Part shown: in pieces, positions 8,396 through 50,104 of the stretch
How positions within the stretch are numbered: the first letter of the stretch is position 1
How the letters are laid out: the number at the start of each line of letters is the position of its first letter
Source: Candidatus Enterousia sp.
GTDB lineage: Bacteria; Pseudomonadota; Alphaproteobacteria; Rs-D84
Length of the DNA: 64,000 nucleotides
Assembly: GCA_045647355.1 (NCBI GenBank)
Contig: JAZRMF010000005.1
Location: 101,763-165,762 of the forward strand
Reading direction: 5' to 3'
Notes under the pieces: model-generated
The model's input: the letters and a program-made list of their open reading frames with translations, nothing else
Databases searched by the model: none
Told to the model about the DNA's origin: nothing
Made by a program: the position numbers and the translations under genes

Positions 8396-8480
8396 TGGTG
8401 GCCCTGGTCGGACTTGAACCGACACTCCTTGCGGAACTTGATTTTGAGTCAAGCGCGTCTACCAATTCCACCACAGGGCC
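8396..8480 (-). tRNA. tRNA-Leu (anticodon CAA)
   Basis: minus-strand cloverleaf: acceptor GGCCCTG/CAGGGCC + A + CCA, anticodon loop CTCAAAA, long variable arm, T-loop GGTTCAAGTCC; 85 nt. Confidence 0.85.
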
Positions 8481-10470: not shown

Positions 10471-12528
10471 ATGAATCCAGAAGAAATACAAGAAACACCG
10501 CAGCAAGCGATTGAAAAGTATACGACCGATTTTACTAAATTGGCCGCGGATGGAAAACTGGACCCGGTGATTGGGCGTGATGAAGAAATTCGCCGCACTA
10601 TCCAGGTTCTATCACGCCGGACGAAAAACAATCCGGTTCTTATTGGCAGCCCCGGTGTCGGTAAAACCGCAATTGTCGAAGGTTTGGCGGAACGTATCAT
10701 TTCACGTGATATTCCGGAAAACCTGCAGAACAAAAAATTGCTGTCGTTGGATATGGGCGCATTGATGGCGGGCGCGATGTTCCGCGGTCAATTTGAAGGC
10801 CGTTTTAAGGCGATTTTAAAAGCCGTCAAAGATTCCAATGGCGAAATTATCTTGTTCATTGATGAATTACACACGTTGGTTGGTGCCGGTAAAGGTGAAG
10901 GCAGTATGGATGCCGGGAACCTTATTAAGCCAATGTTGGCACGTGGGGAATTGCACTGTTTAGGGGCAACCACGTTGGATGAATATCGCCAATATATTGA
11001 AAAAGACCCTGCACTGGCGCGGCGTTTTCAACCGGTCTATATTGATGAACCGACCGTTGACGATACTATTTCCATCCTGCGTGGATTAAAAGAAAAATAC
11101 GAAGGTCACCATGGTGTGCGTATTGCCGATGCCGCATTGGTCGCGGCGGTGCGGTTATCTAATCGTTATATTACCGACCGGTTTTTGCCAGACAAGGCAA
11201 TAGACCTTATGGACGAAGCGGCCGCCCGCGTACGTATGGAGGTTGCGTCCAAACCCGAAGATTTGGATGAAGTCGATCGTCATATAATGCAGTTGAAAAT
11301 CGAACAACAAGCCTTAAAAAAAGAAAAAGACGAAGAATCTAAAAAACGTTTGGTGGAATTAGAAAAACTGATTGCGGGCTTGGAAGAAAAGTCCAAAAAG
11401 ATGACCGCCGACTGGCGCGCCGAACAAGATAAAATGCGTGCGCTGTCTGATGCAATGGCCGCATTGGATGCCGCCAAGGCCGAGGTCGCGTCCGCAATGC
11501 GTAATGGTGATTATGAAAAGGCATCTGCCTTGCAATATGGCAAGATTCCAAGTTTGGAAGAAAACATAAAAAAGATGAATACGGAATCGCGTGAGTACAA
11601 GACGGTTTTACCAGAACACATTGCCGCGGTCGTTAGCAAGTGGACTGGGGTCCCCGCCGATAAATTGAGTGCAACCGAACAATCAAAATTGTTAAATATC
11701 GAAGACGAACTGCGCAAACGTGTTGTTGGTCAAGACGAAGCATTGTCGGTTGTCGCGCGTGCAATACGTCGTTCACGTGCGGGGCTTTCCGACCCACGCA
11801 GACCATCGGGCAGTTTTATGTTCTTGGGGCCTACGGGCGTTGGTAAGACCGAAGTCGCCAAAGCATTGGCGGAATACCTGTTCAATGACGATACGGCAAT
11901 GACGCGTATTGATATGAGTGAATATATGGAACCGCATTCGGTTGCCCGTTTAATCGGCAGTCCCCCGGGATACGTCGGTTATGAACAGGGTGGTACACTG
12001 ACCGAAAGTGTACGTCGCCGCCCGTACCAGGTGTTACTGTTTGATGAAATTGAAAAGGCGCATCCAGATGTGTTCAATGTGTTCTTGCAGATACTGGACG
12101 ATGGGCGATTGACCGATGGCCAGGGGCACATTGTGAATTTCACAAATACAATTATCATTATGACAAGTAACTTGCCAAGTATGGATGCGGTTAAAAAGCA
12201 TTTCCGTCCAGAATTCATTAACCGTATTGATGAAATTGTATTCTTTAACCAGTTGGGCAAAGATGTTATGTCTGGCATTGTGGAAATTCAATTGCGAAAC
12301 CTGCGCGCACGTTTGGCAACGCGTCGAATTGAATTAGATGTAACGGACAAAGCAATCAAATGGTTGGCCGAAAACGGGTACGACCCGGTGTTTGGGGCGC
12401 GTCCATTGAAACGTCTTATTACATCGGCGGTCGAAGATAAAATCGCAGATTTGGTTTTATCAGACACCGTGACCGAAGGCTCAACCGTTTATGTCGATGT
12501 CCATGGCAAAGATTTAACCGTAAAATAA
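10471..12528 (+). CDS. clpB: ClpB-type AAA+ disaggregase lacking the N-terminal domain
   Basis: starts at NBD1 ([10 protein letters not shown], Walker A GSPGVGKT), coiled-coil M-domain, NBD2 GPTGVGKT, sensor-2 GARPLKR; 685 aa vs about 860 for full ClpB. Confidence 0.85.
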
Positions 12529-12548: not shown

Positions 12549-12576
12549 GCGCCCCGGCATAAACCGGGGCTTTTTA
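12549..12576 (+). terminator. rho-independent terminator after clpB
   Basis: gccccggcataaaccggggc + TTTTT. Confidence 0.8.
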
Positions 12577-12578
12577 AC

Positions 12579-12608
12579 TTGACACATTACAGCGATTTTT
12601 GTTAGAAT
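12579..12608 (+). promoter_or_regulatory. sigma70-like promoter (TTGACA, 17-18 nt spacer, TAGAAT) for leader copy 1
   Basis: near-consensus -35/-10; equivalent TTGAAA-17-TAGAAT/TAAAAT promoters precede leader copies 2 and 3. Confidence 0.6.
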
Positions 12609-12629
12609 CGCAAATGAACCAAATGGGAA

Positions 12630-12830
12630 TTTGGTTCGGGGCTGTCGAAAGCCTAAGTTAGCCGGTGCAAAGCATCGTAATATGTTATTTTACATGATTT
12701 TGCACCGTCATATATTCCCCGCGTTTTATGGTCGGGGTGCCGTTGGTGTATATATAAAGGCCACGGAATCTAAGCTAACTTGATTTTCGAACACCCCGAC
12801 CGTCAATTTCCGTTGACGGTTTATTTATGA
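12630..12830 (+). ncRNA. conserved structured 5' leader, copy 1 (candidate riboswitch/attenuator with terminator-like expression platform)
   Basis: shares GGTTCGGGG...CCGGTGCRAAGCATCGTAAT...TTTGCACCGT...TATGGTCGGGGTGCCGTTGG...CCCCGACCG + hairpin + T-run with copies at 40108-40313 and 46371-46582; stem covariation between copies. Confidence 0.6.
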
Positions 12831-12853
12831 AAAATGAATAGGGGGAATTTTTT

Positions 12854-13861
12854 ATGAATAAAAAACTAACAATAGCATCAGTTATTGCGGCAATAGTTGT
12901 AATGCCAACATTTGCGGTTGATGACCCGGTATCGGGTGATAAGCGCACAACGTCACAACCGTATGTTTATAACCGGATACAAGAAGAAACGCAGATAAAA
13001 ATTCCTGCGGCGAACCCGTCAAATACTAACATTGGTAATACGGTAATAACATATACCAATGTAGAGGGTGGCGGTGTAATTGGTGAACGCGAACTGTTTA
13101 CGGGTGGCGAATATGATGCGGATAGCGATTCTGGTAAACTGATTACGGCATCTGCCTTAAATAGTGCGTTTACGAACCTGCCGACGACGGATACGACCAA
13201 ATTGGTATGTGCGAACCAAGCGGACGGTTGTACATTATGGACAATCACGGACCAAACGGCATATGGTGAAACGATAACATTGCCCGAGGGATATACACAC
13301 CTTGCGTATATCGAATCCACTGGCACACAGTATATTGATACGGGAAACAAATTAAATACAAATACGGATGATATCGAAATCATTTTTCAAGCTGTTTCTG
13401 ATAGAACCCCTGTGCCAAATATGAACTTGTTTGGTGCGCGTGGTTCGACAACGTCTATGGCTTATACTCTTGGGGTAAATAGTGGAGGATGGCGTTTTGG
13501 TTGGGGAAATAGTTCACCAAGCGTGGGAACAGCAGATACAAATAAACATGCCGCAAAGATAGAACATAATAATGGTGTATTAAAAATAGATGGTGTAGCA
13601 ATTGATACGCGGGGTAATGTGTCAATTATAACCCCAACTACAGCGACCTTATTCGGGGTTCATGCAACTAGTTCTACTACCATGTACTATGGGAATTATA
13701 AGATTTATTCGTATAAGAAATGGACAGATGGCGAACTTGTTCAGAATTTCATTCCTGTTAAAAATTCCAGCAATGAAATCGGTATGTATGATACCGTCAG
13801 TGAACAATTCTTTAGGAACCGGGGAAGCGGCACATTTACCGCCGGTCCTGTGGTACAATAG
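12854..13861 (+). CDS. secreted protein (signal peptide) with about 190-aa beta-rich module shared with giant surface protein
   Basis: signal peptide MNKKLTIASVIAAIVVMPTFA; module YIESTGTQYIDTG...KIYSYKKW...IPVK...GMYD...F.N.GSGTF also present near C-terminus of ORF 59959-63993. Confidence 0.6.
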   Translation: MNKKLTIASVIAAIVVMPTFAVDDPVSGDKRTTSQPYVYNRIQEETQIKIPAANPSNTNIGNTVITYTNVEGGGVIGERELFTGGEYDADSDSGKLITASALNSAFTNLPTTDTTKLVCANQADGCTLWTITDQTAYGETITLPEGYTHLAYIESTGTQYIDTGNKLNTNTDDIEIIFQAVSDRTPVPNMNLFGARGSTTSMAYTLGVNSGGWRFGWGNSSPSVGTADTNKHAAKIEHNNGVLKIDGVAIDTRGNVSIITPTTATLFGVHATSSTTMYYGNYKIYSYKKWTDGELVQNFIPVKNSSNEIGMYDTVSEQFFRNRGSGTFTAGPVVQ

Positions 13862-17038: not shown

Positions 17039-17075
17039 AAAAAATCCCCATAGCCATGGGGATTTTTTTTATTGT
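17039..17075. terminator. bidirectional terminator
   Basis: A-run atccccatagccatggggat T-run abutting stop of ORF 17069-18265. Confidence 0.7.
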
Positions 17076-18265
17076 CCGTATTTTTTGTTACGCAGCTCTT
17101 CAACAAACTTGTACACCAACGGATGTGTTTCATTCCTAAGTGGCAAAAAAAGCCTAAAACAGGTATCGTTTGCATTTGGCGCTTCGAATACACGTAATTT
17201 TTTTGCATTCAAAAACCAATTAGAACGAAGCTGCTTGACAGCTGGGAATCTTGCCTCTTCCAATCCTTCATTATATTCCAAGAAATTATCCCCTATTTCT
17301 TCGGCGACAGGTGCAGAAATACGTTTAAGTTTTGTGGCAAACGTTAAAACATCATCACGTATGTATTTGCAACTTGGCAAATCAATAGATTCCAAAATAC
17401 TGGCTTTAAAAAAGACACCCTTGTCTAAATACACCACCTTGGGCACCTTTACATCTATTAATTTTATGCAGTCAGCAAAACACCAGTCGTGGATTTCATG
17501 TGCCACGGGCGCATCAATTGTTGCAATATCAAGACATTCTTTAAAACACCGATCCCAAATGTATACAGCCGCCGGCAAATTAACGTGTTTAAGACCGGAC
17601 AAGTTACTAAATGCATCTGGCCCGATATGTGTTGCAGCCGGCAATGTGATTGTATCGGTGGTCATTGGCTGTCTCTTTGGAATACAGAATGAGTGTTGTG
17701 CAACCTCTTCCAACGCCGGCAGGTTTATTTCAGCACAGTGTGTTATTCCATCGCAGAAAGAAGCCGTACCAGTTTTTTTCAAACCTGGAAAATATATTTT
17801 GGTTAATTTATCTGGAACTTTGTTCAAGAATTTATTACCAGTTACCTGCAATTTTGGACAGTCTATGGACGACAAACCATTGTACGGATTCGACAGAAAA
17901 TTATCGCGTGCGGTTTGTAATTCTGGAAAAGATACTGATTCACATTGAACATCATCGCCATTAAACGATACATTGGTTTCGGTCATTTTTGGCAACACCA
18001 TCTTATCACGAAAAACATAATAATATGGATATTTCGTATCAGACGATGAGATATTATGTCTGTGCGGAACACGTACCAAGTGGAAACACAAACCATTATC
18101 CGCATTTACCCTGTAATCTGCGCCGAACATATCATATTCTACGTATATCTGTTCGCCCGCAATTTCGTTTAATATCGCCCATGTATATTCATGCGGGATA
18201 TTTTGCATTAATTCGCAGATTAAAGGATTAGTTGGTACTGGTATAGTATCTTTGATTGTGTGCAT
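17069..18265 (-). CDS. BspA-type leucine-rich repeat (LRR_5-like) protein, no signal peptide; effector-like
   Basis: repeated L.x.I.LP..V..I...F..C..L motifs (INLPALEEVAQHSFC, VNLPAAVYIWDRCFKEC, IDAPVAHEIHDWCFADC, IDLPSCKYIRDDV); paralog of next gene. Confidence 0.5.
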   Translation of the reverse strand: MHTIKDTIPVPTNPLICELMQNIPHEYTWAILNEIAGEQIYVEYDMFGADYRVNADNGLCFHLVRVPHRHNISSSDTKYPYYYVFRDKMVLPKMTETNVSFNGDDVQCESVSFPELQTARDNFLSNPYNGLSSIDCPKLQVTGNKFLNKVPDKLTKIYFPGLKKTGTASFCDGITHCAEINLPALEEVAQHSFCIPKRQPMTTDTITLPAATHIGPDAFSNLSGLKHVNLPAAVYIWDRCFKECLDIATIDAPVAHEIHDWCFADCIKLIDVKVPKVVYLDKGVFFKASILESIDLPSCKYIRDDVLTFATKLKRISAPVAEEIGDNFLEYNEGLEEARFPAVKQLRSNWFLNAKKLRVFEAPNANDTCFRLFLPLRNETHPLVYKFVEELRNKKYGQ

Positions 18266-39769: not shown

Positions 39770-40045
39770 AATACCGGAAGTTCTTAGCAAAACCGTTTGA
39801 ACCCACCACAAAAAACCGCAGATTTCCGCGGATTTTTTTAACTCAAAATTTTTCAATTCTGATATCATATATGATATCTATGACATAGCATATTAGGGCG
39901 ATAAGTGGCAATAACTAGCACCTAATTTTGATAAAAACACATATTGACATACGGAGTCCATCGGTCATACGAAAAACATACCCAAAAACACCCCCGATTT
40001 TTCATATCCGAAATCAATAATGATATCATACGTGAAATTGTATTT
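39770..40045 (+). repeat. about 275-bp repeat following tRNA fragment (also 43887-44162), contains terminator and 19-bp palindrome
   Basis: aaaaaaccgcagatttccgcggattttttt terminator; tgatatcatatatgatatc palindrome. Confidence 0.8.
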
Positions 40046-40057
40046 GATTTTACACCA

Positions 40058-40086
40058 TTGAAATTTGATAAAAAGTATGTTAGAAT
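40058..40086 (+). promoter_or_regulatory. sigma70-like promoter TTGAAA-17-TAGAAT for leader copy 2
   Basis: conserved with copy 3 promoter. Confidence 0.55.
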
Positions 40087-40107
40087 TCCTAATGAATCCA
40101 AGAGATT

Positions 40108-40313
40108 GGGTTCGGGGCATGCTAAGCCCACTTCATTCGGTGCGAAAGCATCGTAATCTGATGTTATCGGTGTCTTTTGCACCGTTATCATCCCTGACTT
40201 ATGGTCGGGGGTTCGTTGGTGATACAACAGGGGTAACCCGAAAGCCACGAAATCAATAATGAAGTGATTTAGCAACTCCCCGACCGCCAATTTCCTTGGC
40301 GGTTCAATTTTTA
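40108..40313 (+). ncRNA. conserved structured 5' leader, copy 2
   Basis: see copy 1; terminator-like hairpin accgccaa-tttcc-ttggcggt + T-run immediately before RBS aggaga. Confidence 0.6.
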
Positions 40314-40327
40314 TAGGAGAGAATACC

Positions 40328-41272
40328 ATGAAAAGATGTTTAATTTTCGTATCAATATTAGCACTGGCAGCATGTACAACAGATAGTGGTGGTGGCAGCA
40401 GTGGCGGTTCGTATAATCATGGCATATCTGGAGGGTATAGCGGTACCACTACGAACAATAATACAAATGGTGGCAATAGCGGAGGTAATACTGGTGGTAA
40501 TACCAATAATCAACAAAACAATCAAGTGGTACATTATACAAACTTTAAACAATACTTTGATAATGTGTTACAACAAAATACAAATGGAGTGTATACAGAT
40601 TTTGTTGAAACTACACAAAGTTGGCCTTCCCAAGGAGGGTATAAACATTATGGATACAATGTAAACTCATCTACGGGTACACAACATAGCATATCGAAAT
40701 ATGTTGTTGAAGAAAAAGAAATGCAGCTCGCAAATTATGGTGTTCAAAATTATACTTATAAGCAGGATTTTGATAACGAATTCCATGATGCTAGCGAATA
40801 TTCTGCAACGGCATATGCACATAATCGTGAGGGTGTCGGGGCAAATTTATATACGCCACAAGAAAACACAGTTTTTAGTGGAGGAACGCTTGCTTATTTA
40901 GACACAAGCGGTCAACAAGCAGATATGTTCTTAAAAGGGAATGCCACATACACGTACAATTCAACCAACCCAGAATTGTTAATCGCATATGATAATTATT
41001 ATACATTCAATATAGTGAAAGGCGATGGTAACAGTGAAACCACGACTGTATCTGGTACAAATAATACAGGAAATGCTTATTACGATGTTACACCAGGAAC
41101 ATACACAGATAATTATGGGTATGATGCCACTTTCACACCAAATCACTTAAAAAAGGGGAATATAGAGGAAGCTGTTGGCACGTATCAACTAAATTTTGGT
41201 ACTGGGGATATTGGTGGTAACACAACAAACAATTTCTTTATACATGGTGCATTTGGTGGCGCAAAGCAGTAA
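40328..41272 (+). CDS. surface lipoprotein candidate (Gly/Ser/Asn-rich linker after lipobox Cys)
   Basis: lipobox LAAC then TTDSGGGSSGG; followed by TPR+barrel gene. Confidence 0.6.
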   Translation: MKRCLIFVSILALAACTTDSGGGSSGGSYNHGISGGYSGTTTNNNTNGGNSGGNTGGNTNNQQNNQVVHYTNFKQYFDNVLQQNTNGVYTDFVETTQSWPSQGGYKHYGYNVNSSTGTQHSISKYVVEEKEMQLANYGVQNYTYKQDFDNEFHDASEYSATAYAHNREGVGANLYTPQENTVFSGGTLAYLDTSGQQADMFLKGNATYTYNSTNPELLIAYDNYYTFNIVKGDGNSETTTVSGTNNTGNAYYDVTPGTYTDNYGYDATFTPNHLKKGNIEEAVGTYQLNFGTGDIGGNTTNNFFIHGAFGGAKQ

Positions 41273-41275
41273 ACA

Positions 41276-42640
41276 ATGCATAATAACATGCGTATTTTAG
41301 TTGGAATATGCACTGCGTTATTTATGTGGGTGTCTGCTGGATTCGCCGAACAAGTACAAACATTAGAACTAGATGATAAACAAGCGCTGGCATTGGCTAA
41401 CGATCTAGTAAATAAAGGCGATTTAAAGTCTGCTACAAATATTTTAGATGCTGTTATAAAAAGCGAGGATGAAAATGCACGTACAGTCGCATTATTTGAA
41501 ATGGGACGAGTGGCATTGGCTAGACACGATTATGCAACAGCAGAGCAAAATTTTCTGACCATATTGAATTGGTACCCAGAGGCAACATTTGTTCGTATGG
41601 AACTAGCCAAAACTTATTTTGCTGCTGGACAATACAGTAGCGCAGATTTTAATTTCCGTTTGGTACTGGCAGATAAGAGTTTATCTGACAATGAACAAAA
41701 ACTTGTACGGAACTATTTGAATTTAATTCGTAAACAAAGAAATTGGGATGTGTTTGCCAGTTTTTCTGTAGTTCCAGATTCAAACCTTAACTATGCCACA
41801 GGCAGAAGAGAAGAATGTATAAACACGATAGCAGGTACACTTTGTCGTGACTTAGAAGACAAATCGTCTGGGATTGGGTTGCAGTACAGTTTAGGTGGCG
41901 ATTATTACCTTAAATTGACCGACCATTTCGGTATAAAAACCAGTGCAGCTTTATATGCGTTGGATTTTCCAACATCAAAATTTGATGATTACATGTTTTA
42001 TGTGGCCGCAGGACCTCGTTACATAATAGATGGAATTGGCGAATTCAGTATCCAGCCATTTGCACAATTGCGCTGGTACGGCGACGAATATTATGACACT
42101 ATGCCAGGCATACGGGCTGATGCAGATTTTGATTTAACAAAGCGGTTGCATTTGTCTCTAGGGGGATCGTATAGCAGGGATATGTATCGTGACGATTCCT
42201 TGAATAGAATTTTGGGTGGCAACGAATATTCGATATACGTTCAGCCACGTTATTATATCAACAATAAAAGTTTCGTATTTGTAGGTACTGCTTATACGAA
42301 TGTCACAGCAAAACAAAAATCATACGGTAACCATGGGTTAAATTATTCCCTGGGATATTTCGCAGAATTGCCATTGACTTTGACTCTGCTTGCTAGGTTG
42401 GATCTGATACAAACAAGGTATAAAAAATCACAGTATTTTATAATGGAAGACAGTAACCTAGAATACTTCACAAGACGTGATACAACATACAGAACTTGTA
42501 TACGGCTATCAAGTCGTTATTTAGAATACAAGAGGCTTTATCCATCGATAAGCTATACTTACACCAGGCGCAACTCAAATGCTCCTATATACGAATTTGA
42601 CAAGCACAGATTTCAAATAGAGATGAACTACCGTTTTTAA
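41276..42640 (+). CDS. TPR + C-terminal beta-barrel outer-membrane protein, Slam/DUF560-like
   Basis: signal peptide, N-terminal TPR-like helices, C-terminal alternating beta pattern ending ...EMNYRF; about 70% identical paralog at 47313-48650. Confidence 0.5.
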   Translation: MHNNMRILVGICTALFMWVSAGFAEQVQTLELDDKQALALANDLVNKGDLKSATNILDAVIKSEDENARTVALFEMGRVALARHDYATAEQNFLTILNWYPEATFVRMELAKTYFAAGQYSSADFNFRLVLADKSLSDNEQKLVRNYLNLIRKQRNWDVFASFSVVPDSNLNYATGRREECINTIAGTLCRDLEDKSSGIGLQYSLGGDYYLKLTDHFGIKTSAALYALDFPTSKFDDYMFYVAAGPRYIIDGIGEFSIQPFAQLRWYGDEYYDTMPGIRADADFDLTKRLHLSLGGSYSRDMYRDDSLNRILGGNEYSIYVQPRYYINNKSFVFVGTAYTNVTAKQKSYGNHGLNYSLGYFAELPLTLTLLARLDLIQTRYKKSQYFIMEDSNLEYFTRRDTTYRTCIRLSSRYLEYKRLYPSISYTYTRRNSNAPIYEFDKHRFQIEMNYRF

Positions 42641-46327: not shown

Positions 46328-46356
46328 TTGAAATTTTATAAAAAGTATGTTAAAAT
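46328..46356 (+). promoter_or_regulatory. sigma70-like promoter TTGAAA-17-TAAAAT for leader copy 3
   Basis: conserved with copy 2. Confidence 0.55.
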
Positions 46357-46370
46357 TCCTCATGAATCCA

Positions 46371-46582
46371 AGAGATTGGGTTCGGGGTCTTTACAAACCC
46401 GCTTTATCCGGTGCGAAAGCATCGTAATCTGATGTTATCGGTGTCTTTTGCACCGTTATCATCCCTGACTTATGGTCGGGGTGCCGTTAGCGATAAAACA
46501 GGGGCAACCCGAAAGCGCGGGGTCAATGATAAAGCGACTGTAAACACTCCCGACCGCTCTTTCTTGGGCGGTTTTAATTTAT
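46371..46582 (+). ncRNA. conserved structured 5' leader, copy 3
   Basis: see copy 1. Confidence 0.6.
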
Positions 46583-46601: not shown

Positions 46602-47309
46602 ATGAAACCATTTGTCGTTTTATTATCCATCTTGTCTTTAACTGCTTGCGGTGGTGGTAGTGGTGGTAGTTCCCCCTCTAATCCTGGTCCAGTTAACCCA
46701 GGCAACCCGAACGTTCCGGGTATAGATGATGAATTAACCGCAGCGGAACAATTGTTTGGTCAAGGTAATGGCACAGGTGCTACACCAACAGCATTGTTAG
46801 CAAGGACCGATAATTTAGGGTTTGATTATTTATCTTTTGGGGCTTGGGGTAATATTTATAATTTGAAGGAATCCGATACAACAAAATTACTTAAAATACT
46901 TGTTCCTGGCGAACCAACATACAATGCGTTTATTAGCGGTAACCATCTTGAATTTACGACCCAACAATTAGAAACAATGCAAAATTGGACGCATACAAAA
47001 GATAGTCGTGTAGCAGAAGCAACATATACGGGGCCAGCCATTATGTATTATATGCCATTTAATCCATCTGGTGCTGTGACAGAATCAGACCATGGAACAA
47101 TGCAACTCAGTTTTGGGCAAGATATAGCAAATTCTGTTTTGAATTTTGTTATGCATAATCCGTCAAACAACATATCTCTCAATTCTGCCGATGATGTTTA
47201 TAGCACAAATTTCTCTGAAGATATGAATAATGTGGTAGTTGTGTATGGTATGTGGGAAAATAATGCTCACAACCTTAGGGTTTATCATGGCTACGGGTCA
47301 AAACAATAA
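46602..47309 (+). CDS. surface lipoprotein candidate
   Basis: lipobox LTAC then GGGSGGSSPSNPG linker. Confidence 0.6.
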   Translation: MKPFVVLLSILSLTACGGGSGGSSPSNPGPVNPGNPNVPGIDDELTAAEQLFGQGNGTGATPTALLARTDNLGFDYLSFGAWGNIYNLKESDTTKLLKILVPGEPTYNAFISGNHLEFTTQQLETMQNWTHTKDSRVAEATYTGPAIMYYMPFNPSGAVTESDHGTMQLSFGQDIANSVLNFVMHNPSNNISLNSADDVYSTNFSEDMNNVVVVYGMWENNAHNLRVYHGYGSKQ

Positions 47310-47312
47310 CTC

Positions 47313-48650
47313 ATGAAAAAAACTTTTTGTGTTTTGTTATTTTTGATTCCCACACTTGTAGTTGCACAAACAACTGATGTCACATATAACGATTCCTTGG
47401 AGTTTGCAAAAAAGCAAATTGTTGGTGGAAATTATGCACAAGCAGAAAAAACTTTGCGAAATTTAAATGGCACCAAAAACACCCAAGAAGAAATAGAAAA
47501 ATGGTTTCTGCTTGGTCAAGTTTATATGGCACAAGGTGACTTTAATACTGCAATAAAGATTTACAGAAAAATCTTAGATAAACAACCCGACTTGTCCAGA
47601 GTCCGTTTAGAATTAGCAAGGGCATTGTTTTTTAATAAACAGTATCAAGAAGCAGAAAATAATTTTTTGTTTGTTCGAGCCGACCACAATACCCCAAATG
47701 AAGTTGTGCAAAAAATTAACTTATTTTTGACCGCTATCAGACAACAAAGAAACTGGTATGCTAATTTTTCGTTTGGTATTGTTCCTGATTCAAACCTTAA
47801 TTATGCCACTGGACGACGTGAAGAATGTATAAATACAATGTTTGGTATTTTGTGTCGTGAATTGGATGACAAATCATCTGGTGTTGGCCTTCAGTATGGA
47901 CTTGGTGGGGATTATTATATAAAAATGACAGATAATTTCGGCATCAAAACCAGTGCATCGTTATATGCCCTTGATTTTTCAAATTCCACATTTGATGATT
48001 ATATGCTGTATATGGCAGCAGGTCCTAGATATGTCCTGGGCGGTATTGGCGAAATCAGTGTTCAACCGTTCACTCAATTACGTTGGTACGGTGGAGAGTA
48101 TTATAATACTGTCCCCGGTGTGCGTGCAGACATAGATTTGGATTTATCAAAACGTATTCGATTATCATTTGGTGGTTCATATAGTAAAGATATGTACCAC
48201 GACGATGATTTAGACGATATTTTACGTGGGGACGAATACACAACCTATATTCAGCCTAGATATTACATAAACAACAAAAGTTTTACATTTGTCGGTTTGT
48301 CTTATACAACCAACACAGCAAAATTAAAATCATATGGCAGTAATAGTATGTATTATTCTATTGGTTATTTTGGTGAATTGCCTTGGACCCTATCATTGTA
48401 TGCCAGGTTAGATTTAACACAAACAAAATACAAAGATTCACAATTCTTTATAATGGATGATTACACAGTAAATAAATTTACACGACGTGACATCGGTTAT
48501 CGTGCATATTTACGTCTATCCAGTCGTTATTTGGAATACAAACGATTGTATCCTGCAATCAGTTACACATACACTAAACGTGATTCAAATGCTCCTGCGT
48601 ATGATTTTGATAAGCATAGATTTCAAATCGAAATGAATTATAGATTTTAG
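47313..48650 (+). CDS. TPR + beta-barrel outer-membrane protein, Slam/DUF560-like (paralog)
   Basis: see 41276-42640; ends ...EMNYRF. Confidence 0.5.
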   Translation: MKKTFCVLLFLIPTLVVAQTTDVTYNDSLEFAKKQIVGGNYAQAEKTLRNLNGTKNTQEEIEKWFLLGQVYMAQGDFNTAIKIYRKILDKQPDLSRVRLELARALFFNKQYQEAENNFLFVRADHNTPNEVVQKINLFLTAIRQQRNWYANFSFGIVPDSNLNYATGRREECINTMFGILCRELDDKSSGVGLQYGLGGDYYIKMTDNFGIKTSASLYALDFSNSTFDDYMLYMAAGPRYVLGGIGEISVQPFTQLRWYGGEYYNTVPGVRADIDLDLSKRIRLSFGGSYSKDMYHDDDLDDILRGDEYTTYIQPRYYINNKSFTFVGLSYTTNTAKLKSYGSNSMYYSIGYFGELPWTLSLYARLDLTQTKYKDSQFFIMDDYTVNKFTRRDIGYRAYLRLSSRYLEYKRLYPAISYTYTKRDSNAPAYDFDKHRFQIEMNYRF

Positions 48651-50028: not shown

Positions 50029-50104
50029 TCGGGCATAGTTCAGTCGGTAGAACAACGGACTGTTAATCCGTATGTCACTGGTTCGAGTCCAGTTGCCCGA
50101 GCCA
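50029..50104 (+). tRNA. tRNA-Asn (anticodon GTT)
   Basis: acceptor TCGGGCA/TGCCCGA + G + CCA, anticodon loop CTGTTAA, T-loop GGTTCGAGTCC; 76 nt. Confidence 0.9.

Follow-up and report, generated by a model that had tools for sequence, protein, structure and literature searches.

A terminator-bearing leader RNA with copy-specific address helices and an sRNA-Xcc1-like three-way junction in Rs-D84 Alphaproteobacteria

The c4 module of P1 is laid out in the order a1b1-c4-a2b2-icd/ant, and Citron and Schuster reportedly described its a1b1/a2b2 details. In P1, production of Ant is repressed by c4 RNA (PMC8546580). The CI RNA of P4, with its layout of seqA and seqC, has premature transcription termination as its outcome, and the IsrK locus yields a short terminated RNA, a read-through mRNA that can adopt either of two long-range folds, and STnc1160, a processed RNA complementary to IsrK (PMC4825925). 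A further RNA, sRNA-Xcc1, was detected as a species of ~88 nt (PMC2996969). Tandem arrays of sRNA-Xcc1 homologues ~380 nt apart occur in Xylella fastidiosa, and in another Xylella strain the annotations of sRNA-Xcc1, isrK and C4 antisense RNA adjoin (PMC12189769), as would be the case if one kind of leader were built from exchangeable parts, namely isrK-like 5′ domains and modules of the Xcc1 or C4 type. Here we describe a leader RNA that occurs in three copies, named A, B and C, in a stretch of 64,000 nt from Candidatus Enterousia sp. (GCA_045647355.1, contig JAZRMF010000005.1, positions 101,763-165,762, forward strand; hereafter the window), and that combines an sRNA-Xcc1-like 3′ half with an intrinsic terminator. 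Enterousia belongs to the uncultured order Rs-D84, with genomes mostly <1 Mb (PMC12306168).

Three homologous regions with 79% mean column identity are present in the window. As the original prediction had proposed, all three are leaders, and all lie on the + strand; each spans ~215 nt by the bounds of our full-length covariance model (R1), which recognizes them with 178-231 bits and finds no fourth copy in the 64 kb. Copies B and C are ~90% identical, and both stand ahead of lipoprotein-Slam gene pairs. The conserved blocks are also as described: the pattern GCATCGTAAT..ATGGTCGGGG is seen three times in the window against 0.00 expected, and the stability z-scores of the three RNAs, relative to shuffled controls, range from -6.4 to -8.0. 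The predicted σ70-like promoter was confirmed for each copy, and its position is kept throughout the family described below. The σ70 consensus is matched at ≥9 of 12 positions in 86 of 97 family copies, and the -10 hexamer ends 6-7 nt ahead of RNA position 1 of the model in 85 of 97, indicating therefore that the RNA begins with its first hairpin, P1. At the other end, a same-strand open reading frame (ORF) with a ribosome-binding site (RBS) begins a median of ~20 nt past the leader in 40/40 loci with enough sequence, leaving therefore no room for a second promoter. A promoter of its own at a fixed distance and an adjacent downstream ORF thus argue for regulation in cis.

The family was collected from two sources. 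Species-representative genomes were scanned once with the pattern GCATCGTAATN{30,60}ATGGTCGGGG, which gave 60 loci, 44 of them true homologues, nearly all in gut metagenome-assembled genomes (MAGs) labelled Candidatus Enterousia, ‘Alphaproteobacteria bacterium’ or ‘uncultured proteobacterium’. The second source was a scan of metagenomes with a differently anchored pattern, followed by R1. The covariance model discarded the 16 of 60 genome matches and 75 of 120 metagenome matches that lay in coding DNA of unrelated taxa. The final set holds 99 copies (97 distinct), almost all of them from gut Alphaproteobacteria with reduced genomes (Candidatus Enterousia, order Rs-D84), and includes six divergent copies that fit neither search pattern. 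Several MAGs carry 2-3 copies even by the strict pattern, and the window has its three within 64 kb. BLAST of the leader against phage and plasmid collections returned nothing, and the pattern scan of viral_contigs gave 0 matches. At the gathering thresholds of Rfam 15, only tRNAs were found in the window and only tRNAs and tmRNA in 18 further loci. Permissive matches (rimP, RT-8, snoRNAs, ncr1175 and others) fell on promoters or terminators or had E values near 1-10, and were set aside as chance. In the literature on Enterousia, on Rs-D84 and on Slam with riboswitch, we found no description of this leader.

The secondary structure was derived by hand and first scored on a plain MAFFT alignment of 45 copies that had not been fitted to any structure. 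In this alignment 90.2% of cells are paired, compared with 79.6% after shuffling, and 38 pairs carry changes in both partners. Shuffled alignments have a covariation score of 0.172 and slid controls one of ≤0.106, whereas the real alignment scores 0.347, which 0/500 shuffles reach. In the alignment of 97 copies, 94.8% of cells are paired (79.8% shuffled), double changes occur in 55 of 64 pairs, and the score rises to 0.439 against 0.172, with slid controls of at most 0.078. The leader family is a real structured RNA absent from Rfam 15.

The fold opens with P1, a 5′-terminal hairpin (helices 1-2; 97.5-99.6% paired, compensatory changes in 7/8 pairs), followed by the 4-bp hairpin P2. P3 is closed by CGGUGC...GCACCG, and in the main clade it adds an internal loop, GCAUCGUAAU, and a small distal hairpin; its pairing GGTGCRAA/TTTGCACC, which the original prediction had noticed as covarying variable stretches, is 98.4% paired over the 97 sequences. 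A helix proposed by RNAalifold, GGUGC-GCAUC, was rejected in favor of this closing stem. P4 joins C-run1 (CCCUGAC) to G-run2 (GGUCGGGG), P5 is an arm containing an internal hairpin, and P6 is a second 4-bp hairpin. P2 and P6 have some compensatory support of their own (GGAC/GUCC, GGGU/ACCC, AGCA/UGCU, ACAU/AUGU). The intrinsic terminator (helix 13) covaries in 8/8 pairs, so that its predicted stem covariation is borne out in full. The terminal hairpin and T-run likewise stood, with a GC-rich hairpin and U-rich tail at the end of every window copy; the distance to the Shine-Dalgarno sequence did not, being 12-20 nt rather than the proposed 25 or so. The P1, P3 and P4 sequences are identical in copies that differ elsewhere, and the main clade has long, highly conserved unpaired stretches, GCAUCGUAAUC and UUAUCAU. 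The P5 arm is missing from four copies, and the divergent copies have a simple P3 hairpin without the GCAUCGUAAU loop and keep the remainder. Copy B can be read as an ORF from an AUG at 40092, but a leader peptide was ruled out, given a first codon that varies among UUG, CUG, GUG and AUG, many indels, helix-compensated variation and no RBS.

The strongest covariation of the leader lies in two long-range helices that the original prediction had missed, which we term address helices. Segment a1, the 7 nt that directly follow P2 on its 3′ side, is paired with the P6 loop (a′), with compensatory changes in 7/7 pairs and 98.2% paired, and the P2 loop (b1) pairs with the strand directly 3′ of P6 (b′), with compensatory changes in 6/6 pairs. 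Together a1:a′ and b1:b′ make 13 bp that are 98% paired, and most of these pairs use all four Watson-Crick types. The two helices are co-linear and can be drawn as a single long interrupted stalk; if P2 and P6 formed simultaneously, each address helix would be an H-type pseudoknot. The 99 copies hold 72 distinct (a1, b1) combinations. A leader pairs with itself over 12.6 of 13 bp, whereas cross pairing between leaders of the same genome or contig has a mean of 6.5/13 and a maximum of 10. Window copies B and C, identical in P1, P3 and P4, differ in their addresses with compensation. The addresses are copy-specific, and they are orthogonal between copies of one genome. As a separate observation, two divergent copies (L130 1062-1233 and L086 4149-4321) have identical 5′ halves, and the addresses in the 3′ half of L130 mismatch its own 5′ half (4/7 and 0/6 pairs); L130 may have arisen by recombination, be in decay or be a chimera of the assembly.

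The 3′ half of the leader is a three-way junction distantly related to sRNA-Xcc1 (RF02221). In the MAFFT alignment A7 this junction is 92.4% paired, with double changes in 10/22 pairs. RF02221 matches the 3′ half of copy B with 38.2 bits (40203-40293, E = 4.4e-4) and copy C with 23.3 bits, both below the gathering score (GA) of 53; copy A gave no match at E ≤ 10, and no match at GA was found in the window or the 18 further loci. The original prediction could place the leader in no known class, which holds at the gathering score of every Rfam family; a wholly unrelated RNA it is not. In the opposite direction, a model of the family 3′ domain folded as a junction closed by G-run2 and C-run2 (R2) was tested on four loci found by BLAST of the Rfam Xcc1 consensus (Aaphi23, Neisseria, Stx phage and a Pseudomonas plasmid). 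R2 matches all four at the Xcc1 position, with 33.5, 32.1, 26.5 and 21.3 bits (E = 3e-6 to 1.6e-3), and RF02221 confirms two of them with 86.1 and 79.6 bits (above GA). The leader junction and sRNA-Xcc1 share the same three-way shape and a GC-rich closing helix (GGUCGGGG/CCCCGACC compared with GgCcGGggG/CccCCgGcC), whose sequence varies among the four Xcc1-type elements and which is preceded by AUG. They also share an arm with the internal loop AUA(C/A)AA(U/C)A ... GAA(A), or AUACAAUA...GAAUA, around a short hairpin, a second hairpin and a UU..AAC junction strand.

The Rfam Xcc1 model covers only the 87-nt junction and is labelled a trans-acting sRNA. Upstream of the junction, all four Xcc1-type elements have a small-hairpin loop (b1) complementary to the junction strand, and then a strand (a1) complementary to the loop of the last hairpin, as in the leaders; both differ in sequence in each element. 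These four loci indicate that sRNA-Xcc1 makes up the 3′ half of a leader that has two domains and address pairings like those of c4 and CI. Both sites recur (a2/b2) at or next to the RBS in 3/3 Xcc1 elements with a gene directly downstream, the genes being ant, an ‘antitermination’ ORF and BRO. One Rs-D84 leader (L170:2431-2650) keeps its terminator and also has a2/b2 near the RBS, with an 8-nt repeat of a1 (ACAAACAC) and a 7-nt repeat of b1 (UCAUAAA) around the RBS and start of the gene (L170 2431-2700); in appearance it stands midway between the leaders of Rs-D84 and the Xcc1 elements of phages.

The leader contains four short G- and C-runs: G1 (UCGGGG) at the P1/P2 boundary, G2 (GGUCGGGG) in mid-leader, C1 (CCCUGAC) upstream of G2, and C2 (CCCCGACC) downstream of the junction. 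The last four bases of C2 start the terminator stem, in line with the predicted overlap between this block and the terminator 5′ arm. C1:G2, which is P4, is 92.8% paired with 7 G-C to A-U cells, and G1:C2 is 93.8% paired with 12 such cells. G2:C2 (GGTCGGGG/CCCCGACC), the distal pairing suggested by the original prediction, is pairable in 98.6% of cells, and we regard it as a real helix mainly because it is homologous to the Xcc1 closing helix. A fourth helix, G1:C1, is pairable but has C.C or C.A mismatches in 16 sequences and was not adopted. Homologous positions of the four runs show transitions only, compensated in one partner and tolerated as wobbles by the other (four-column patterns: A,U,G,U, 11 sequences; C,A,U,G, 4 sequences). 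The exception is the divergent clade, in which all four strands changed together (U,A,U,A), as in L036:3311-3491 (CCUCCAACC / GGUUGGAGG / CCUCCAACC). In contrast, every Watson-Crick pair type is found in helices whose strands have one partner only; the pattern of the runs is that expected of strands with more than one. Constrained folding of the segment from C1 to the terminator in 95 copies gave mean energies of -34.8 kcal/mol for a state with P4 and the terminator and -34.1 kcal/mol for the three-way junction closed by G2:C2, in which the terminator is reduced to a 5-bp remnant. The two states differ by +0.7 ± 5.0 kcal/mol, and the junction (ON) state is the more stable in 38/95 copies.

The reading that we prefer, by analogy with described systems and with doubt and belief in roughly equal measure, is that the leader is a chromosomal, terminator-coupled variant of the c4/CI/IsrK-Xcc1 antisense leaders that acts in cis as a transcription attenuator. 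In one state, G2 would pair with the upstream C1 to form P4, leaving C2 free for the full terminator, and transcription would stop with release of an RNA of ~215 nt. In the alternative state, G2 would pair with C2 and close the junction, 4 nt of the terminator 5′ arm would be removed, and RNA polymerase would read on; G1 is a second G-run that also pairs with C2. As the analogy with c4, CI and IsrK suggests, the address segments would dock by RNA-RNA pairing and so set the balance between the folds, be it in cis while the leader is transcribed or in trans through an accumulated pool of leader RNA, terminated or processed, that has the same address, and either route would give gene-specific feedback. 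Such docking would explain why addresses differ between copies in one cell, a difference for which an intramolecular role has no need. A metabolite is not a likely input signal.

Several observations weigh against this reading. The antiterminator G2:C2 is near-invariant in the family, with only 3 compensatory cells, and the better-covarying G1:C2 and C1:G2 both fit the fold that keeps the terminator, which the unconstrained minimum-free-energy fold also retains in 51/95 copies. The conserved stretches GCAUCGUAAUC and UUAUCAU would be suitable for the binding of a ligand or protein as well. The phage Xcc1 elements go undetected by the full-length model R1, and a2/b2 sites downstream of the Rs-D84 leaders are absent in 92/93 copies, the longest downstream match having a mean of 4.2 nt compared with 4.18 in shuffles. 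No trans targets or extra G-run/C-run motifs were found in the window outside the leaders. The link to c4 and CI is architectural and not based on sequence: neither C4 (RF01695) nor c4-2 matches the window copies at E ≤ 10. Likewise, isrK gave no match in the window copies, and its sole match, of 10.9 bits, lies in the 5′ part of the Aaphi23 element.

The genes behind the leaders are mostly secreted or surface proteins, and in the window each copy precedes one, as had been predicted: a signal-peptide protein for copy A, and a lipoprotein gene followed by one for the outer-membrane translocon Slam for copies B and C (Table 1). Across the family they include proteins beginning ...RVLHVGDNTIKLSQTKTT, Listeria-Bacteroides-repeat proteins and lipoproteins with Slam, together with proteins of the cytoplasm or membrane, namely methylases of the EcoRI and Eco57I types, a GT2 glycosyltransferase, a protein with ankyrin repeats and an 8xMP membrane protein. 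A comparison of the downstream genes of the family loci revealed no common function or pathway. In both window lipoproteins the lipobox Cys is followed by a linker rich in Gly/Ser/Asn, and neither matches Pfam; the two pairs are Slam-type (PF04575, TPR_Slam) surface-lipoprotein systems in a reduced-genome gut alphaproteobacterium.

Table 1 Positions of the leader copies, their elements and downstream genes in the window, and of the sRNA-Xcc1-type elements compared with them
Feature	Position	Strand	Details
Copy A promoter	12579-12608	+	TTGACA, 18-nt spacer, TAGAAT
Copy A complete leader, P1 through U-tract	12616-12829	+	R1 177.9 bits, E = 4e-52
Copy A P1, 5′-terminal hairpin	12616-12637	+	helices 1-2
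Copy A P2 hairpin	12639-12654	+	loop holds address b1 UCGAAA, 12645-12650
Copy A address a1	12656-12662	+	AGUUAGC; partner a′ at 12774-12780
Copy A P3 domain	12663-12707	+	CGGUGC...GCACCG, internal loop GCAUCGUAAU
Copy A P4 hairpin	12717-12737	+	C-run1 12717-12723 : G-run2 12730-12737; belongs to ‘terminator on’ state
Copy A 3′ domain, sRNA-Xcc1-like three-way junction	12730-12801	+	closed by G-run2:C-run2; contains P5 arm, P6 hairpin (a′ 12774-12780) and b′ 12785-12790
Copy A C-run2	12794-12801	+	CCCCGACC; common to closing helices and terminator 5′ arm
Copy A intrinsic terminator	12798-12829	+	hairpin 12798-12821, then U-rich tract
Copy A downstream gene	12854-13861	+	335-aa protein, signal peptide, no Pfam family; RBS AGGGGG 12840-12845
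Copy B promoter	40058-40086	+	TTGAAA, 17-nt spacer, TAGAAT
Copy B complete leader	40094-40312	+	R1 231.3 bits
Copy B 5′ elements			b1 40120-40125, a1 40131-40137, C-run1 40192-40198, G-run2 40203-40210
Copy B 3′ elements			a′ 40258-40264, b′ 40269-40274, C-run2 40278-40285, terminator 40282-40304
Copy B downstream operon	40328-42640	+	314-aa lipoprotein 40328-41272; Slam 41276-42640 (PF04575)
Copy C promoter	46328-46356	+	TTGAAA, 17-nt spacer, TAAAAT
Copy C complete leader	46364-46581	+	R1 205.9 bits
Copy C 5′ elements			b1 about 46390-46395, a1 46402-46408, C-run1 46463-46469, G-run2 46474-46481
Copy C 3′ elements			a′ 46528-46534, b′ about 46539-46544, C-run2 46547-46555, terminator 46552-46573
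Copy C downstream operon	46602-48650	+	235-aa lipoprotein 46602-47309; Slam 47313-48650 (PF04575)
Aaphi23 element	L061 1340-1625		b1/b′ UCGAAA / UUUCGA; a1/a′ CAAACAG / CUGUUUG
Stx phage P13374 element	L062 1365-1610		b1/b′ CUCAAAA / UUUUGAG; a1/a′ GCAAGUAG / CUACUUGC
Neisseria gonorrhoeae element	L183 420-670		b1/b′ UAAGAA / UUCUUA; a1/a′ CACUAG / CUAGUG
Pseudomonas plasmid element	L184 430-720		b1/b′ UAAGAAA / UUUCUUA; a1/a′ CAAGCAG / CUGCUUG

Other features were recorded around the leaders. In the leader sub-group that stands before the RVLHVGDNTIKLSQTKTT secreted-protein family, the terminator and a GGGGGG RBS are separated by a further hairpin, GGGGUAAUAU...AUAUUACCCC (L001 3690-3765; also L003, L035, L040, L048 and L054) and may be an extra translational control element. 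Upstream of leader A, between a clpB-like gene (10471-12528) and the promoter, stands a bidirectional terminator-like hairpin, GCCCCGGCATAAACCGGGGC, with A/T runs on both sides (12551-12570), which accounts for the spurious rimP-leader match. A 135-aa ORF on the opposite strand (39922-40329, -) spans all of leader B and, because of the RNA covariation, is almost certainly not a gene. tRNA genes are found in the window at 8399-8480 (-) and 50029-50101 (+), and here, as in at least 12 of 18 related loci, no more than a few kb separate tRNA genes from genes under a leader; because of this proximity, the leader-controlled genes may sit in variable or island-like regions. At 17069-18265 (-) the window also encodes a BspA-type leucine-rich-repeat protein (PF13306), likely a surface or host-interaction protein, without a leader copy.

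The original prediction had taken the leader for a candidate riboswitch or attenuator. The conserved structured leader and a terminator platform sharing its 5′ arm with another helix were upheld, whereas nothing points to a small-molecule ligand. A riboswitch for a metabolite, ion or second messenger, in which the fold would be the aptamer and the ligand would move the G-run between the two C-runs, nevertheless has points in its favor: a complex covarying architecture with long-range helices, highly conserved junctions and internal loops in the main clade, a classic terminator platform with two near-isoenergetic folds, and multiple copies per genome before mixed surface genes, as would fit a global signal such as a cyclic dinucleotide. 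We consider it unlikely all the same, since even a threshold of E ≤ 10 brings up no known class, the downstream genes are united by no pathway, the divergent members lack the GCAUCGUAAU loop yet keep the remainder, four copies can do without the P5 arm, copy-specific pairings rather than a conserved pocket make up the most distinctive parts, and the homologous Xcc1 elements belong to RNA-RNA control circuits. The identity of P1, P3 and P4 in otherwise differing copies would also suit antitermination that depends on a dedicated RNA-binding protein or on RNA polymerase itself, as with put and EAR elements, and that acts through the conserved P3 and P4. All leaders of one genome share their G-run/C-run sequences, which would suit a common trans factor, and the regulated genes are accessory and surface genes, like those that make up RfaH-, LoaP- and UpxY-type regulons. 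Such a mechanism leaves the copy-specific, orthogonal address helices unexplained, however, and no known protein-binding leader in Rfam resembles the Rs-D84 leaders; the neighboring ORFs that were scanned are housekeeping or of unassigned function, with no regulator candidate evident among them, and we rate this explanation as rather improbable.

A promoter, a structured RNA of 215 nt and an intrinsic terminator are also the anatomy of a small RNA (sRNA) gene, and sRNA-Xcc1 was itself detected as a short RNA. The leaders would then be stand-alone genes for trans-acting sRNAs, ended by the terminator, and their position upstream of genes would be incidental. This seems quite improbable against the uniformly close same-strand ORF described above (40/40 loci), the complementarity of a′/b′ to their own transcript with no other site in the window, and the finding that Xcc1 elements elsewhere also stand directly upstream of genes. 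The ~90% identity of copies B and C, both before lipoprotein-Slam pairs, might finally suggest a non-functional repeated promoter or untranslated-region cassette spread by duplication or gene conversion, but compensatory changes keep 55/64 pairs across 97 copies from many genomes, and the B/C differences fall in paired segments and are compensated. Covariation thus effectively refutes an inert cassette, to which we give hardly any credence.

These observations define a new, well-supported RNA family from an uncultured lineage with genomes <1 Mb, standing ahead of lipoprotein/Slam operons and accessory genes. The two-domain view would change the reading of hundreds of annotated Xcc1 loci in phages, integrons and pathogens, and the Rs-D84 leaders would be a natural variant in which antisense logic is joined directly to an intrinsic terminator. 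Their 72 natural address combinations, largely orthogonal within a genome, are of interest for RNA engineering. A bolder and rather doubtful proposal, again by analogy, is that the reduced-genome Rs-D84 bacteria have domesticated an antisense ‘immunity’ module of the phage type and put it to general use in gene control, with a leader before each surface or accessory gene whose 13-nt address is private and orthogonal. If so, feedback in trans by a terminated or processed leader would reach no nascent transcripts but those of its own gene, and gene-specific RNA autoregulation would replace protein transcription factors.

Compared with known systems, the leader resembles terminator-type riboswitches and attenuators in that long-range or pseudoknot helices shape its 5′ sensor domain and that one strand of the expression platform is common to an antiterminator helix and the intrinsic terminator; it differs from them in matching no aptamer class, in its incoherent regulon and in the copy-specific nature of the most variable parts of the ‘sensor’. 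Another likeness is to sRNA-Xcc1, whose elements likewise pair an upstream hairpin loop with the junction strand and an upstream strand with the loop of the last hairpin, and likewise lie directly upstream of genes (ant, BRO, ORF6N, symE). Here the differences concern host, gene context and terminator. The leaders are found on chromosomes of Rs-D84 Alphaproteobacteria, whereas Xcc1 occurs in phages, integrons and plasmids of Beta- and Gammaproteobacteria, and they precede surface-protein, methylase and other genes rather than genes of the symE/ant/BRO type. Their intrinsic terminator follows the junction and shares its closing strand, whereas the Xcc1 phage elements have a U-run hairpin between the 5′ domain and the junction, and a2/b2 over the RBS.

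In c4 of P1/P7 and CI of P4 (seqA/seqB/seqC), as in the leaders, an antisense module lies inside the leader transcript of the controlled genes, two short recognition segments are complementary to upstream sites in the same transcript (a1b1 or seqA), and the recognition sequences vary among related elements, setting specificity. In contrast to c4 and CI, the second target downstream (a2b2 or seqC) is missing in 92/93 leader copies, the module carries its own intrinsic terminator, and its setting is not a phage immunity region. IsrK (RF01394) differs in that its terminator comes before the second domain and in that the controlled step is orf45 translation. It is similar in being a promoter-proximal structured RNA with an intrinsic terminator and a controlled ORF directly after it; in Salmonella Gifsy-1, partial read-through of IsrK continues into the downstream ORFs, the short and long forms share complementary segments, and two alternative long-range folds decide expression, as would those that we propose for the Rs-D84 leaders.

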